Sequence record: PV390659.2
From: Escherichia phage vB_EcoM_P8
Length of the DNA stretch: 64,000 nt
Strand: one strand, 5' to 3'
Below the pieces are notes generated by a model. That model did not search any database. It was not told the origin of the DNA and saw only the letters and a program-made list of their open reading frames with translations. Below are positions 12,671-18,308 of the stretch, piece by piece; position 1 is the stretch's first letter, and the number at the start of each line of letters is the position of its first letter. Position numbers and translations under genes: made by a program.

Positions 12671-12843
12671 AAGATGAACACCCAGACTTCTGAAATAGAT
12701 TATAATAAAATTCGTTCCTCTAAAGTAGAAATGATGAGGCGCTTTAAAGAGTCTCATGATAAAGCTAAAGCAGAAGGAACTATAGCATATAAACGTATAA
12801 AATTTAGAAGCTCTAATGAGCCTCTGTATGGTGTATTATGCGG

Positions 12844-12863
12844 ATAGGAGCTTCGGCTCCTAT
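12844..12863 (+). terminator. hairpin UAGGAGC-UUCG-GCUCCUA
   Basis: perfect 7-bp stem with UUCG loop; weak T tract. Confidence 0.5.
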
Positions 12864-12865
12864 AT

Positions 12866-12889
12866 TGCTTTATAAATTTTTGGTAAAAT
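12866..12889 (+). promoter_or_regulatory. MotA-dependent middle promoter upstream of a-gt
   Basis: Mot box tgcttta 12866-12872, 11 bp spacer, taaaat 12884-12889. Confidence 0.5.
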
Positions 12890-12913
12890 AAACCAAAACA
12901 ATGAGGATATTAA

Positions 12914-14116
12914 ATGAAAGTATGCATTTTTATGGCTCGAGGTCTTGAAGGTTGTGGCGTAACTAAATTTTCTCTTGAGCAACGTGATTGGTTTATTAAA
13001 AATGGTCATGAAGTAACTTTGGTTTATGCTAAAGATAAATCATTTACTCGTAATTGCGCGCATGATTATAAATCATTTTCAATTCCGGTTTTATTGGCAA
13101 AAGAATACGATAAAACCCTTAAGCTGGTAAATGATTGTGATATTCTAATTATCAATTCAGTTCCTGCTACTTCAGTAGAAGAAGACACCATTAATAACTA
13201 TAAAAAAATTATTGATAACATTAAACCTTCGGTTCGTGTTGTAGTTTACCAGCATGACCATTCTTCTCTTTCTTTACGCCGAAATTTGGGATTAGAAGAA
13301 ACTGTTCGTCGAGCTGATGTTATTTTTAGCCATTCTGATAATGGTGATTTTAATAAAGTTCTGATGAAAGAATGGTATCCAGAAACAGTTTCTCTGTTTG
13401 ATGATATTGAAGAAGCACCGACCGTATATAACTTTCAGCCTCCTATGGATATTGCGAAGGTTCGATCAACCTACTGGAAAGATGTTTCTGAAATTAACAT
13501 GAATATCAACCGTTGGATTGGTCGTACTACTACATGGAAAGGCTTTTATCAGATGTTTGATTTTCATGAAAAACATCTTAAACCTGCAGGACTAAGTACT
13601 ATTATGGAAGGTCTGGAACGTTCTCCAGCTTTCATTCCTATTAAAGAAAAGGGAATTCCATACGAGTATTATCGTCTTCATCAAGTAGACCAAATTAAAA
13701 TTGCTCCTAATTTGCCAACGCAAATTCTTGACCGTTATGTAAATAGTGAAATGCTTGAACGCATGAGTAAATCCGGATTTGGTTATCAGCTGAGTAAATT
13801 AGATAAAAAATATCTACAACGTTCTTTAGAATATACTCATCTAGAGCTTGGTGCATGCGGAACAATTCCAGTATTTTGGAAATCTACTGGCGAAAATTTA
13901 AAATTTCGTGTTGATAATACTCCGTTAATTTCTCATGATAGCGGTATCGTTTGGTTTGATGAAAATGACATGGAATCAACATTTGAACGTATTAAAGAAC
14001 TGTCATCTGACCGAGCTCTTTATGACCGCGAACGCGAAAAAGCTTATGAATTTTTGTATCAGCATCAAGATTCAAGCTTCTGCTTTAAAGAACAATTTGA
14101 CATTATTACAAAATAA
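12914..14116 (+). CDS. a-gt: DNA alpha-glucosyltransferase
   Basis: 400 aa, matches remembered T4 alpha-gt. Confidence 0.85.
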   Translation: MKVCIFMARGLEGCGVTKFSLEQRDWFIKNGHEVTLVYAKDKSFTRNCAHDYKSFSIPVLLAKEYDKTLKLVNDCDILIINSVPATSVEEDTINNYKKIIDNIKPSVRVVVYQHDHSSLSLRRNLGLEETVRRADVIFSHSDNGDFNKVLMKEWYPETVSLFDDIEEAPTVYNFQPPMDIAKVRSTYWKDVSEINMNINRWIGRTTTWKGFYQMFDFHEKHLKPAGLSTIMEGLERSPAFIPIKEKGIPYEYYRLHQVDQIKIAPNLPTQILDRYVNSEMLERMSKSGFGYQLSKLDKKYLQRSLEYTHLELGACGTIPVFWKSTGENLKFRVDNTPLISHDSGIVWFDENDMESTFERIKELSSDRALYDREREKAYEFLYQHQDSSFCFKEQFDIITK

Positions 14117-14133: not shown

Positions 14134-14157
14134 GCTTTATACGGAGTTTGATATAAT
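14133..14157 (+). promoter_or_regulatory. possible middle promoter (Mot-like box AGCTTTA, TATAAT)
   Basis: agcttta 14133-14139, 12 bp spacer, tataat 14152-14157; same module recurs at 46166-46190. Confidence 0.4.
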
Positions 14158-14296
14158 GATATTTCTTGGATATGTGATACTTTTTCTTGCATTTTATCTA
14201 TTTACTAGAGCATGTTGGATTGGGTTCTTTAGTACTCCAGATGGATTTATTTCAATAATTTTATTTTGCATTTCAATGACGGTTCTTGATATATGA
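14156..14296 (+). CDS. small membrane protein (46 aa)
   Basis: hydrophobic ORF with ATGA overlap to gene 47. Confidence 0.4.
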   Translation: MIFLGYVILFLAFYLFTRACWIGFFSTPDGFISIILFCISMTVLDI

Positions 14297-15312
14297 AAAT
14301 TTTAAATTTAGGTGATTGGCATTTAGGTGTTAAAGCCGATGATGAGTGGGTTCAATCAATCCAGTTGGATGGAATTAAGCAGGCGATAGAATATTCTAAG
14401 AAAAATGGAATTACTACATGGATTCAATACGGTGATATTTTTGATGTGCGAAAAGCAATCACGCATAAAACTATGGAGTTCGCCCGTGAAATAGTTCAAA
14501 TGCTTGATGATGCTGGTATTACCCTGCATACTGTTGTAGGAAACCATGATATGCACTTTAAAAATACTTTAACTCCAAATGCTTCTACTGAGCTTTTGGC
14601 TAAATATCCTAATGTTAAAGTATATGATAAGCCTACTACAGTAGATTTTGACGGATGTTTGATTGATTTAATTCCTTGGATGTGCGAAGAAAATACTGGT
14701 GAAATTCTTGAACACATCAAAACTTCATCTGCTTCTTTTTGTGTCGGTCACTGGGAGCTGAATGGATTTTATTTTTATAAAGGAATGAAATCTCACGGTC
14801 TTGAACCTGATTTCCTTAAGACTTATAAAGAGGTGTGGTCTGGTCACTTCCATACTATCTCTGAGGCTGCTAACGTCAGATATATTGGGACACCATGGAC
14901 ACTAACTGCAGGTGACGAGAATGACCCTCGTGGGTTCTGGATGTTTGATACAGAAACAGAACGAATGGAATTTATTCCAAACAACACCACCTGGCATCGT
15001 CGAATTCAATATCCATTTAAGGGAAAAATTGACTATAAAGATTTTACAAATCTATCAGTACGTGTTATAGTAACTGAAGTAGACAAAAATCTAACGAAGT
15101 TCGAATCTGAACTAGAAAAAGTTGTGCATTCATTACGAGTTGTGTCAAAGATTGATAACTCTGTCGAGTCAGATGATAGTGAAGAAGTTGAAGTTCAATC
15201 TCTTCAGACATTGATGGAAGAATACATTAATGCAATTCCAGACATCACTGATTCTGATCGCGAAGCACTTATTCAATATGCAAATCAGTTATATGTAGAG
15301 GCAACACAATGA
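14293..15312 (+). CDS. 47: recombination nuclease subunit gp47 (Mre11-like phosphoesterase)
   Basis: 339 aa; metallophosphoesterase motifs GDWH, GNHD. Confidence 0.9.
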   Translation: MKILNLGDWHLGVKADDEWVQSIQLDGIKQAIEYSKKNGITTWIQYGDIFDVRKAITHKTMEFAREIVQMLDDAGITLHTVVGNHDMHFKNTLTPNASTELLAKYPNVKVYDKPTTVDFDGCLIDLIPWMCEENTGEILEHIKTSSASFCVGHWELNGFYFYKGMKSHGLEPDFLKTYKEVWSGHFHTISEAANVRYIGTPWTLTAGDENDPRGFWMFDTETERMEFIPNNTTWHRRIQYPFKGKIDYKDFTNLSVRVIVTEVDKNLTKFESELEKVVHSLRVVSKIDNSVESDDSEEVEVQSLQTLMEEYINAIPDITDSDREALIQYANQLYVEATQ

Positions 15313-15572
15313 CTTTTGATGAATTTAAAAATGTTATGATGAGTCAGCATTTTGAATGCGAAGTAAAAGATGATATTGGGCATAAAGAAATTATTGAATA
15401 TTGGTTTGAACCGCTAGAGGTTGAAGATAATTGTATTAAAAAGGTTACGGTCTGCACTGACTGGGCTGTATCTTTTAACTTCAACATTTTAGATAATGAT
15501 ACACCTAAATCATTACAAGATATGGCTGTATCTTGTATTAAGGATGCATACTGTGAAGTTTTCGACATTTGA
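15309..15572 (+). CDS. hypothetical protein
   Basis: 87-aa ORF with ATGA overlap. Confidence 0.5.
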   Translation: MTFDEFKNVMMSQHFECEVKDDIGHKEIIEYWFEPLEVEDNCIKKVTVCTDWAVSFNFNILDNDTPKSLQDMAVSCIKDAYCEVFDI

Positions 15573-15759
15573 CATTAACGATGAATTCATAGCAAATATT
15601 GATTACACCGAAGAAGATTCTAGATATGTTGGAATAATTTATATCACATCAAAAGCAGCACAAGGCGTTGTTTGCATGGCTGAATTTGATGAATACTTTT
15701 TAGATTATGATGATATGATAGAATGGTCTAAAAGATACATTAAAAGGAATCTTTTGTGA
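15547..15759 (+). CDS. hypothetical protein with N-terminus homologous to start of downstream HNH ORF
   Basis: ATG 15547; VKFSTFDINDEFI resembles KNFKLDINDEFL at 15756. Confidence 0.4.
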   Translation, partial: HTVKFSTFDINDEFIANIDYTEEDSRYVGIIYITSKAAQGVVCMAEFDEYFLDYDDMIEWSKRYIKRNLL

Positions 15760-16610
15760 AGAATTTTAAACTTGACATTAATGATGAATTTTTAATAAAG
15801 GAATTAGTTGAAAAATTAGCGTTGAGTGAAGAAGACGCCAAGTCTTACATTAATTTTATTTCTATGAATTCAACTGTTAAAACTCCAGGTAAAACGGAAG
15901 CACACCACGTGCTTCCTAAATCAATATTTCCTGAATATTTAAAATCTACATGGAATTTAGTTAATTTAAGTCATTTTAATCATTTTAAAGCACACTTCTT
16001 ATTAGCAAAAGGTAAAAATGGAAAAATGCTAAATGCTTTAAATAGAATGATGTCAGGAAAAACATATAAAAATTTATCTTTAGCCGAAGTTGATTTAATA
16101 GCTGCTGAATATAGTTTTATAAAACAAGATGTAAGTGACACAATATCAAAAAGGCTTCAACAGTATTATTCAAATCCGCAAAATAGAAATGCTGCTAGAG
16201 AAAGGGCATTAAAATATTTTTCAGTAGCAAAAAATAGGAAAGATAACAAAGAAAGATTAAATAATTTTAAAACAAAACAAAAAATTTCAATGGCTTCAAG
16301 GGAATGGTTTAATAACGAAGAAAATAAAATTAAACACCAAAAGGCTGTTCGTGCTGCTTTATCAAAACCTGAATATAAAATAGCTATATCAAATTCAGTA
16401 GCTGCTAGTTGGAAAAATCCGGAGATTAGAAAAGCTCATATAGCATCTCGACGAAAAGGCTATCATTGGGATAATAAAGATAAATTGTATGAATTGTGGA
16501 TATCATATAATCGTCCTAAACATGTGATGTTTAGGAAAATGCTAGTTAAGAATGGATATCCAATAGAGGCTTCATTACAGGCTTTAGTTAAAGAATTTTC
16601 TTCATTGTGA
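15756..16610 (+). CDS. free-standing HNH homing endonuclease (Mob-like)
   Basis: 284 aa, GTG start; HH..N..H motif (EAHHVLPKS..NLVNLSHFNH); repetitive basic C-terminus; AT-rich codon usage. Confidence 0.7.
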   Translation: MKNFKLDINDEFLIKELVEKLALSEEDAKSYINFISMNSTVKTPGKTEAHHVLPKSIFPEYLKSTWNLVNLSHFNHFKAHFLLAKGKNGKMLNALNRMMSGKTYKNLSLAEVDLIAAEYSFIKQDVSDTISKRLQQYYSNPQNRNAARERALKYFSVAKNRKDNKERLNNFKTKQKISMASREWFNNEENKIKHQKAVRAALSKPEYKIAISNSVAASWKNPEIRKAHIASRRKGYHWDNKDKLYELWISYNRPKHVMFRKMLVKNGYPIEASLQALVKEFSSL

Positions 16611-16625
16611 ACAATTGGATACAAA

Positions 16626-18308
16626 ATGAAATCATTTAAACTTAATAGAGTAAAATATAAAAATATAATGTCAGTTGGTCAAAATGGAGTTGACATTCAA
16701 CTAGATAAGGTTCAAAAAACTCTTATTACTGGACGAAATGGCGGTGGTAAGTCTACTATGTTAGAAGCCATCACATTTGGGCTTTTTGGCAAGCCATTCC
16801 GTGATGTAAAGAAAGGTCAATTAATAAACAGCACGAATAAGAAAGAACTTTTAGTTGAATTGTGGATGGAATATGATGAAAAAAAGTACTATATCAAAAG
16901 AGGACAAAAACCGAATGTTTTTGAAATCACCGTTAACGGTACACGTCTTAATGAATCTGCCAGCAGTAAAGATTTCCAAGCAGAATTTGAACAGCTTATC
17001 GGAATGTCATACGCCAGTTTCAAACAAATCGTCGTACTCGGCACGGCTGGATATACCCCTTTTATGGGCCTATCCACTCCTGCAAGAAGAAAACTCGTCG
17101 AAGACCTGCTCGAGGTAGGAACATTAGCTGAAATGGATAAGCTTAATAAAGCACTAATACGTGAATTAAATTCACAAAACCAAGTGCTTGATGTTAAAAA
17201 AGATAGTATTATCCAACAAATTAAAATATATAATGATAACGTTGAACGCCAGAAAAAATTAACTGGTGATAACCTTACTCGTCTACAGAATATGTATGAT
17301 GATTTGGCAAAAGAAGCTAGAACGCTAAAATCGGAAATAGAAGAAGCTAATGAAAGATTAGTTAATATTGTTTTGGATGAAGACCCGACTGATGCATTTA
17401 ATAAAATCGGTCAAGAAGCATTTTTAATTAAATCAAAAATTGACTCGTATAATAAAGTCATTAATATGTATCACGAAGGTGGATTATGTCCAACCTGTTT
17501 GTCACAATTAAGTTCCGGTGATAAAGTTGTTTCTAAAATTAAAGATAAAGTTTCTGAATGTACGCATTCGTTTGAACAGCTTTCAACGCATCGTGATAAT
17601 TTAAAAGTTCTTGTTGATGAATACCGAGATAATATTAAAACCCAGCAGACGTTGGCAAATGATATTCGCAATAAAAAGCAATCCTTAATCACGACGGTAG
17701 ATAAAGCTAAAAAGGTTAAAGCGGCTATAGAAAAAGCATCATCTGAGTTTATTGACCATGCTGATGAAATAGCATTGCTTCAAGAAGAACTTGATAAAAT
17801 TGTTAAGACAAAAACTAATTTAGTAATGGAAAAATACCACAGAGGAATTTTGACTGACATGCTCAAAGATTCTGGTATTAAAGGTGCTATTATTAAAAAG
17901 TACATTCCATTATTTAATAAGCAGATTAACCATTATCTTAAAATAATGGAAGCGGATTATGTGTTTACATTAGATGAAGAATTTAATGAGACAATTAAAT
18001 CTCGTGGTCGTGAAGATTTTAGTTATGCTTCATTTAGTCAAGGTGAAAAAGCACGAATTGATATTGCTCTTTTATTTACTTGGCGTGATATTGCTGAAAA
18101 AGTTTCAGGTGTTAAAATAAACACACTAATTCTTGATGAAGTTTTTGATTCAGCAACCGATGTTGAAGGTGTAAAAGCTATTTCAACTATTTTAGATAGT
18201 TTAAAAAATACTAATGTTTTTGTTATTTCACATAGAGACCATGACCCACAAGCATATGGTCAGCATCTTCAAATGAAGAAAGTTGGTCGATTTACTGTAA
18301 TGGTTTAA
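16626..18308 (+). CDS. 46: recombination nuclease subunit gp46 (Rad50/SbcC-like ATPase)
   Basis: 560 aa; Walker A GRNGGGKST, zinc hook CPTC, signature and D-loop motifs. Confidence 0.9.
   Translation: MKSFKLNRVKYKNIMSVGQNGVDIQLDKVQKTLITGRNGGGKSTMLEAITFGLFGKPFRDVKKGQLINSTNKKELLVELWMEYDEKKYYIKRGQKPNVFEITVNGTRLNESASSKDFQAEFEQLIGMSYASFKQIVVLGTAGYTPFMGLSTPARRKLVEDLLEVGTLAEMDKLNKALIRELNSQNQVLDVKKDSIIQQIKIYNDNVERQKKLTGDNLTRLQNMYDDLAKEARTLKSEIEEANERLVNIVLDEDPTDAFNKIGQEAFLIKSKIDSYNKVINMYHEGGLCPTCLSQLSSGDKVVSKIKDKVSECTHSFEQLSTHRDNLKVLVDEYRDNIKTQQTLANDIRNKKQSLITTVDKAKKVKAAIEKASSEFIDHADEIALLQEELDKIVKTKTNLVMEKYHRGILTDMLKDSGIKGAIIKKYIPLFNKQINHYLKIMEADYVFTLDEEFNETIKSRGREDFSYASFSQGEKARIDIALLFTWRDIAEKVSGVKINTLILDEVFDSATDVEGVKAISTILDSLKNTNVFVISHRDHDPQAYGQHLQMKKVGRFTVMV

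Follow-up and report, generated by a model that had tools for sequence, protein, structure and literature searches.

A probable MobD-like homing endonuclease gene behind the sixth codon of gene 46 in a T4-like Escherichia phage

Free-standing homing endonucleases shape the genomes of the T-even phages and underlie the classical phenomenon of marker exclusion. SegF, SegG and MobE are the established cases of intronless homing (review: PMC2988022). MobE is the one HNH 'Mob' enzyme with a known target, and the entry for MobD gives its activity as 'ND' and its target as 'unknown' (PMC2988022, Table 1). The subject of the present analysis is a candidate for this group found in Escherichia phage vB_EcoM_P8 (PV390659.2), in a stretch of 64,000 nucleotides that was analysed as a whole and is called the window below. 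An earlier reading made from the sequence alone had pointed to an open reading frame (ORF) of 284 aa with an HNH core near the recombination nuclease genes 47 and 46. The reading we favour, with a probability of roughly 0.7, is that this ORF is a homing endonuclease gene (HEG) of the MobD-like HNH kind, free-standing and without a promoter of its own, that sits after codon 6 of the essential gene 46 and travels with a linked, probably cleavage-resistant haplotype of that gene.

The window comes from a T4-like phage. A megablast search with positions 15200-16800 returned 518 related records, nearly all of them from Tequatrovirus, and a match to Escherichia phage vB_EcoM_BMB16 at 100% identity; here and below, counts of records include duplicates and close relatives and are not counts of independent events. 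The order of the genes on the + strand was taken from the ORF listing, Pfam and PHROG scans and the T4 annotation, and the parts of the locus that matter for the argument are the following.

15309-15572, + strand: gene 46.2 (87 aa), resident in T4 as well and belonging to the left homology flank (Pfam T4_Y03C, E 1e-43; position as T4 46.2).
15553-15759, + strand: gene 46.1 (68 aa), with a GTG start (Pfam DUF5487, E 2e-49).
15756-16610, + strand: the 284-aa HNH endonuclease ORF, intact, with a GTG start.
15756-15773, + strand: the native gene 46 start GTGAAGAATTTTAAACTT (MKNFKL), now the first six endonuclease codons; left copy.
15774-16643, + strand: the 870-bp block missing from T4 and other empty-site genomes (three-way alignment, junction listing).
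16611-16625, + strand: a 15-nt spacer ACAATTGGATACAAA brought by the insert, 5' of the new gene 46 start (read from the sequence).
16626-16643, + strand: the replacement gene 46 start ATGAAATCATTTAAACTT (MKSFKL); right copy.
16626-18308, + strand: gene 46 (560 aa), a Rad50/SbcC-like recombination nuclease subunit, its 5' end invaded.

The insert was defined by a three-way alignment of the window with T4 and RB68 and by listing the junctions of 15 genomes. T4 has no ORF at the site; its gene 46 begins with a GTG that overlaps the stop of 46.1 and reads ...AGGAATCTTTTGTGAAGAATTTTAAACTTAATAGAGTA..., and a 'gtg start codon' is noted for T4 gene 46 in record M10160. The window is the same as T4 through GTGAAGAATTTTAAACTT, then diverges, and rejoins T4 870 bp later where ATGAAATCATTTAAACTT passes into AATAGAGTA. 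Relative to T4, in other words, an 870-bp block stands after codon 6 of gene 46, between GTGAAGAATTTTAAACTT and AATAGAG. The 9-bp repeat TTTAAACTT is found at both ends of the block, so that its boundary can be moved by up to 9 nt.

What makes this scar so legible is the duplication of the start of gene 46. The left copy is identical to the gene 46 start of T4 and of every sampled empty-site genome, the overlap with the 46.1 stop included. Together with the right copy it forms an 18-nt imperfect direct repeat in which 13 of 18 positions are identical and the last nine, TTTAAACTT, match exactly; the pattern RTGAARNNNTTTAAACTT has two matches in the window, against 0.01 expected. The endonuclease ORF is without an initiation region of its own and starts on the native GTG of gene 46, overlapping the 46.1 stop (TTGTGA). 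Because its frame opens at this resident GTG, the HEG would inherit the ribosome-binding context of gene 46 as well as that gene's translational link with 46.1. There is no intron, only a restart of gene 46, and from its sequence Gp46 is predicted to be made still, from the fresh start that closes the insert on the right, its first six residues showing a single change (MKSFKL for MKNFKL). The spacer holds a GGA that may be a weak ribosome-binding site for this restart. The first 15 nt of the replacement start are those of the resident gene 46 start in Mosigvirus, a weak hint that it may have come from that genus. A scan for sigma-70 promoters and terminators remained at background level (16 sites against 13.4 expected), and RNA folding at both starts and at the empty site of T4 gave z values of -0.05, +0.51 and -0.57, with no sign of a regulatory hairpin.

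The sequence-only reading had taken the endonuclease to have entered or recombined with the preceding gene and captured its translation start. A resident start is indeed used, but it is the start of gene 46 and not that of 46.1, and the insertion into 46.1 has to be given up. The TGA stop of 46.1 overlaps the GTG at 15756, the gene measures 207 nt with or without the insert, and it aligns end to end with T4 and RB68; since it is intact and of equal length in both types of genome, nothing was inserted into it here. The interval that had been proposed for the element, 15547-16610, does contain the ORF, but its left end takes in 46.1 (15553-15759) as well. A footprint of intronless homing, as it had been called, was thus right in kind, with the wrong gene named as captured and the second repeat, at gene 46, missed.

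The protein itself was better described from the start. The five residues expected of an HNH core are in place in the ORF at 15756-16610, and the likeness to Mob-type enzymes with a basic C-terminus is borne out by homology:

15894-16007, + strand: HNH core (predicted beta-beta-alpha-metal), residues 47-84, TEAHHVLPKSIFPEY...WNLVNLSHFNHFKAHFLL (homologue alignments, AlphaFold2).

The ORF matches PHROG 655, 'homing endonuclease' (E 8e-45), and PHROG 12434, 'HNH endonuclease' (E 4e-15). BLASTP aligns it with MobD of phage RB10 over residues 47-281 at 30% identity (E 1e-18), the basic C-terminal half included; tblastn finds T4 MobD (E 2e-11) and a gene of Yersinia phage PST annotated mobC (E 8e-22, 36% identity), and a search for protein homologues adds the HEG between nrdD and nrdG of Escherichia phage KK4 at 35%. 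Residues H50, H51, N67, H76 and H80 are invariant in the homologue alignments, with a motif that reads EAHHVLP...WNLVNLSHFNHFKAH. An AlphaFold2 model puts strands at residues 47-51 and 68-72, followed by a helix (73-84), and its pLDDT is about 88-90 across residues 11-90. Its first helix begins at residue 11; residues 1-10 and the C-terminal half are poorly predicted, and the borrowed N-terminal leader (residues 1-10) thus lies outside the confidently folded part. Fold searches gave no informative result. There was no match to Pfam HNH (PF01844 and relatives) at E <= 0.1 or to NCBIfam at E <= 1; MobD itself, with 18.2 bits, falls short of the PF01844 threshold of 21.4. T6, PhiZZ23 and Pu-Krd-SF2 code for the same product of 284 aa, most carriers have the ORF undamaged and with more than 99% conservation, and many GenBank/RefSeq records already label the gene 'homing endonuclease'. 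Its GC content of 28.7% is lower than that of the neighbouring genes (30.4-36.3%) and of the window (34.9%), so that the greater AT-richness that had been remarked on is true but modest. Judged by its homologues, the ORF is a free-standing MobD-like HNH homing endonuclease gene of the Mob type, with a putative nuclease activity and target. One protein variant from Logan assemblies, P0021 (290 aa), has a 3' frameshift, apparently from a 1-nt deletion (window ~16595-16628), and reads ...KEFLHCEQLDTK. Read on in the window sequence, its frame would stop at a TGA that overlaps the new gene 46 ATG (ATGA), an arrangement that would couple translation of gene 46 to that of the endonuclease.

The insert is a presence/absence polymorphism, and the empty allele is the majority. 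It is present in 70 of the 518 related records and the site is uninterrupted in 446, with flanks 95-100% identical, so that the comparison with insert-free relatives, which had been proposed as a check, comes out in favour of an insertion. The carriers include T2, T6, RB51, RB68, PP01 and KIT03; T4 is without the insert. The HEG-bearing alleles are 98.6-100% identical to one another, and the sampled carriers have mixed flanking backgrounds. Copies in T6, the window, PhiZZ23 and Pu-Krd-SF2 are intact. The T2 copy is frameshifted by -2 nt (204 aa); RB51, RB68 and MLP2 have lost one A from an A6 run (window 16279-16284), and the frameshifted product of RB68 has 208 aa; the copy of G2133 is frameshifted by +7 to +8 nt. 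To judge from their sequences, these lesions are independent inactivations of the same gene. Signs of invasion, decay and loss are all found at the locus, as intact, frameshifted and empty alleles of the T4 type. Outside the sequenced phages, scans of JGI metagenomes and IMG/VR yielded no relatives of the HEG, and exact-pattern scans of IMG/VR gave two Tequatrovirus contigs only. A copy of the whole insert at 71.9% DNA identity is found in OK040907.1 (phage Ac3, 34360-35228), at exactly the coordinates of RB51/RB68 and in a genome of nearly equal length. Phage Ac3 is probably the single tblastn record at 80-90% identity, and its copy is probably one of low quality and not a diverged variant.

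The second line of evidence is the sequence just behind the insertion point. Six carriers and nine non-carriers were aligned over 865 nt to its left and 600 nt to its right (1465 nt), and two haplotypes, A and B, are separated by 11 fixed differences, all of them at relative positions 0 to +44 and none elsewhere; the remaining polymorphisms in the same alignment are scattered and without association to the insert.

16643-16689, + strand: haplotype A tract, gene 46 codons 6-21, a candidate immunity or co-conversion tract (15-genome alignment).

Haplotype A reads ...AATAGAGTAAAATATAAAAATATAATGTCAGTTGGTCAAAATGG and is found in all six carriers, in T4, in fPS-2 and in one IMG/VR contig; haplotype B reads ...AAACCGAGTTAGGTATCAAAATATAATGTCAGTAGGTGGAAATCC and is found in the other six non-carriers. 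The B sequence is the candidate target. Database-wide there are 70 records with the HEG and A, 74 without it and with A (T4 included), about 360 without it and with B, and none with the HEG and B. The carrier PhiZZ23 and the non-carrier Paracelsus differ at 22 of 1465 positions, and 14 of these differences fall in the 47 nt after the insertion point. HEG-bearing genomes, that is, have linked sequence differences near the putative target. Several GenBank/RefSeq records of class B call gene 46 from an internal ATG (codon 15; locus position 958 against 916). The GTG overlapping the 46.1 stop is conserved in those genomes, and the internal calls are therefore an inconsistency of annotation. In Gaprivervirus TH55 (L019, ~1040) the 3' end of 46.1 is that of T4 over the 70 nt shown upstream of gene 46, and the gene 46 N-terminus is of a third type, VKTFKLKKVIYKNIMSVGAQPITVE; the first 20 codons of the gene are thus unusually variable across Tevenvirinae.

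There is a further repeat in the endonuclease start, the one that the sequence-only reading had seen between the ORF and the gene before it, and it is real and far above chance. It spans 45 nt at 76% identity (15552-15596 and 15755-15799) and has a 19-nt core, TTGACATTAAYGATGAATT:

15569-15587, + strand: core copy 1, 46.1 codons 6-12, TTGACATTAACGATGAATT.
15772-15790, + strand: core copy 2, endonuclease ORF codons 6-12.

The two copies agree at 18 of 19 positions here and at 19 of 19 in most relatives, and copy 2 is identical over all 19 to the consensus 46.1 sequence (T4, T6, PhiZZ23 and others). The core pattern has two matches in the window against 0.01 expected, a number reached in none of 100 shuffles. 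Codons 7-12 of the ORF (GAC ATT AAT GAT GAA TT) copy codons 7-12 of 46.1, in the same register from a shared TGTGAAG. Most simply, the 46.1-like 19-mer would be an older layer, the vestige of an earlier fusion of the HEG to the start of 46.1.

A state of this kind is seen in a second genus. In Mosigvirus, 10 of 163 records (pEK20 and 9 others) have a HEG with 43% protein identity at the same locus. It stands there in place of 46.1 and opens with the initial seven codons of the Mosigvirus version of that gene (MTKTDYE, found likewise in RB69). The 46.1 starts of Mosigvirus and Tequatrovirus are unrelated. An ancient homology between the HEG N-terminus and 46.1 was considered and rejected, as each HEG matches, in DNA, the 46.1 start of its own genus only and the starts are mutually unrelated; this excludes common ancestry of the two HEG N-termini and indicates recombinational fusion. 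Both sampled HEG-bearing Mosigvirus genomes, out of the 10 records, have an A-like Gp46 N-terminus (YKNIMSVGQNF), and that of RB69 is B-like (YQNIMSVGGNPI). Of the empty Mosigvirus sites, 138 records match the RB69-type, B-like sequence at >=95% identity, and 4 match it at 80-90% and are read as A-like from the one that was sampled (WFK). The idea that the last codons of the HEG and the spacer are the 3' remnant of a 46.1 from a foreign genus was also tried and dropped, the alignment being no better than shuffles (p 0.37-0.80).

From these elements a sequence of events can be proposed. In mixed infection the enzyme would nick or cut insert-free B alleles in or near codons 6-21 of gene 46, a stretch that codes for a conserved portion of the Rad50-like ATPase head immediately ahead of the Walker A motif (GRNGGGKS). 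Repair templated by the HEG-bearing genome would transfer the HEG together with the adjacent resistant A tract, as in intronless homing, and the carrier could owe its immunity to the A tract, to the disrupted junction or to both. In the earlier state, 46.2 may have been followed by codons 1-12 of 46.1 fused to the HEG and then by gene 46, with 46.1 replaced; recombination in register between the 46.1 start and the similar start of gene 46 (TGTGAAG...TT) would then have moved the HEG behind an intact 46.1. There its translation would be coupled to that of 46.1 (TTGTGA), on the model put forward for mobE and nrdA (PMC2988022). Empty A alleles such as that of T4 could go back to a loss of the HEG across the TTTAAACTT repeats, or to a repair event in which the A tract was copied and the HEG was not; either event would reproduce the T4 sequence to +44, and beyond that point (+45/+46) it would have been not exact or not recent. 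The frameshifted copies in T2, RB51/RB68, MLP2 and G2133 would represent the decay phase of the homing cycle.

Three other explanations have to be set against this one. In the explanation closest to the sequence-only reading, the endonuclease inserted into or recombined with 46.1 and took its start, and the repeat shared by 46.1 and the ORF is the primary footprint. The 19-nt core is real and in register with the 46.1 start, and the Mosigvirus homologue is truly fused to a 46.1 start and replaces that gene; yet 46.1 is complete here, with its 207 nt and a full-length DUF5487, and collinear with T4 up to its stop, the start codon and first 18 nt of the ORF belong to gene 46, and what the empty-site genomes lack starts behind codon 6 of gene 46 and not within 46.1. 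As a description of this genome it is contradicted by the T4 and class-B alignments, and we consider it improbable. To much the same degree we doubt that the insert is ancestral to Tequatrovirus, with the empty sites of T4 and class B as deletions and the patchy distribution as repeated loss. A deletion between the TTTAAACTT repeats does yield T4's junction, and its A tract as far as +44, and both the decayed copies in T2 and RB68 and the 74 empty A alleles would suit repeated loss. The same deletion could not have given the roughly 360 class-B empty alleles, because these have 11 fixed differences in the adjacent 45 nt, and they resemble the empty RB69 allele of another genus. The HEG is also more AT-rich than its surroundings, and the near identity of its alleles (98.6-100%) on mixed backgrounds suggests a recent spread.

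The remaining explanation does away with homing: the ORF would be a domesticated HNH protein with a function for the phage, such as exclusion of competitors or DNA processing, and A and B an unrelated polymorphism. In its favour, most carriers have an undamaged ORF with more than 99% conservation, the ORF is translationally wired into the operon of the 47-46 recombination nuclease, and among Mob proteins homing activity has been demonstrated for MobE only (PMC2988022, Table 1). The independent frameshifts in T2, RB51/RB68/MLP2 and G2133, however, show the gene to be dispensable, and its presence or absence, its full linkage to the adjacent cluster of substitutions and the repetition of the pattern in a second genus are signatures expected of homing. 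We regard domestication as very improbable.

Several points weigh against the favoured reading itself, that of a homing endonuclease gene in gene 46 with a linked resistant haplotype. Cleavage, its site and homing by this enzyme are things that we infer from sequence. The A/B dimorphism may be an old one that the HEG met by chance when it landed, and not a pair of resistant and sensitive alleles, and there are 74 records of empty Tequatrovirus A alleles along with the 4 empty Mosigvirus records that appear A-like. The T4-type A alleles differ from all sampled HEG-bearing alleles at +45/+46 (GGGATT against GGAGTT), and so they are not fresh deletion products. A weaker point concerns the earlier fused state: no Tequatrovirus HEG fused to the 46.1 start without 46.1 was seen in searches that could not reliably distinguish such a form. 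A chimeric 298-nt query gave, among the matches listed, only matches in two pieces separated by 46.1, and the searches with the HEG body (70 records with megablast, 71 with blastn) do not report whether 46.1 is there.

An extension of the favoured reading can be offered tentatively, namely that A is a cleavage-immune Gp46 N-terminus kept by the HEG lineage and moved with the HEG, and occasionally without it, across genera. It draws on the dimorphism of gene 46 codons 12-21 in two genera, where all HEG-bearing alleles have YKNIMSVGQN and the majority of empty alleles YQNIMSVGGNPI, and on the Mosigvirus-type gene 46 start ATGAAATCATTTAAA carried by the Tequatrovirus cassette. Were it true, the 5' end of T4 gene 46 would be the relic of a lost HEG, and every stage of the homing cycle would be on display at one locus in about 680 sequenced genomes.

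Even without that extension the locus has its uses. The insertion scar can be read base by base, and the putative target comes down to some 45 nt at the beginning of an essential, Rad50-like gene. Alleles that would be sensitive (B), immune and empty (A, T4), active (T6) and decayed (T2) exist in standard laboratory phages, and together they offer a clean natural system for homing more than a surprise. The arrangement also illustrates how a selfish gene without a promoter or a start could take over the initiation region of an essential gene without host death, by way of a spare start, and it would account for the differing first codons of gene 46 in the annotation of T-even phages.

The rest of the neighbourhood is that of a T4-like phage.

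12914-14116, + strand: a-gt.
14156-14296, + strand: 47.1.
14293-15312, + strand: gene 47.
Downstream of gene 46: 45.2, then rpbA, then gene 45.

Directly upstream of a-gt, T4 has mobB, an HNH gene. In the corresponding part of the window (12674-12913) a 57-aa DUF5486 ORF ends 66 nt before a-gt, with DUF2654 and DUF5491 further upstream; by its gene content the window phage appears to lack mobB, and it carries the gene 46 endonuclease. Within gene 46, at 17012-17099 (about +369 to +456 from the insertion point), some 24 substitutions, mostly 3 nt apart, distinguish the window phage from the non-carriers IME339 and Pu-Krd-SF4 in pairwise comparison, and the table of variable sites suggests that the alternative bases are common to all 14 other sampled Tequatroviruses. 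This patch has the appearance of a short mosaic segment acquired from a remoter relative, with no relation to the endonuclease.

With regard to what has been published, T2 is credited with a single HEG, an 'other HNH', and T6 also with one 'other HNH' (Petrov et al. 2010, PMC2993671, Table 5); these entries are probably the gene 46 HEG. Its insertion site, target and start capture are not described in PMC2993671, in PMC2988022 or in what full-text searches reach (subscription-only papers lie outside them), and the searchable literature holds no report of site-specific cleavage or biased inheritance for it.

Among its relatives, the closest that is not identical is the 'MobD-like homing endonuclease' of the Mosigvirus vB_EcoM-pEK20 (UAW07224.1), at 43% protein identity in pairwise alignment and about 70% DNA identity over nt 148-842 of the insert. 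Both genes occupy the same locus, borrow a resident start, come with changed first codons of gene 46 and are linked to an A-like Gp46. The pEK20 gene differs in that it stands in place of 46.1 and is joined to 7 codons of that gene, against 6 of gene 46 here, and its 3' end overlaps the start of gene 46, where the present gene has a 15-nt spacer. The nearest paralogous family is the HNH gene between nrdD and nrdG, known as 'mobC' in PST (L027 317-1156) and as P0003 in KK4 (L004 3001-3840), with 35-36% identity. It has the same HHVLPKSIFPEY core behind an N-terminal region of the same length (44 residues), and its start overlaps the nrdD stop as its end overlaps the nrdG start; it differs in its locus and in a C-terminus with weak NUMOD1/I-HmuI NUMOD-like matches. 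In a metagenomic contig (L003), nrdD is also split, with a SegE-like GIY-YIG gene. T4 MobD is homologous from the HNH core to the C-terminus, including the basic NPE/K-rich repeats and a G(Y/K)HW...LY.LWI..NRPK...GYP block, and is likewise free-standing in an early or middle operon, between nrdC.11 and mobD.1. Its locus and its N-terminal 45 residues are different, and no start capture or duplicated start has been described for it.

The parallel with the enzymes of established homing goes further. MobE (HNH, between nrdA and nrdB) and SegF and SegG (GIY-YIG) are free-standing beside a conserved gene that holds the target, have no initiation region of their own and overlap the upstream stop (UAAUGA for mobE, TTGTGA here; PMC2988022), and the polymorphisms adjoining them are inherited together with the HEG; the gene 46 HEG resembles them in all of this, with a putative target. 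Their cleavage sites have been mapped and their homing measured, whereas the gene 46 HEG is known here from its sequence. By these comparisons it belongs, as yet uncharacterised, to the HNH homing endonucleases of the Mob type, an ordinary element with an unusually legible scar, and what sets it apart is where it sits: MobE, SegF and SegG lie in the gaps between genes, and this one lies inside the first codons of its putative target gene, for which it has brought a replacement start.

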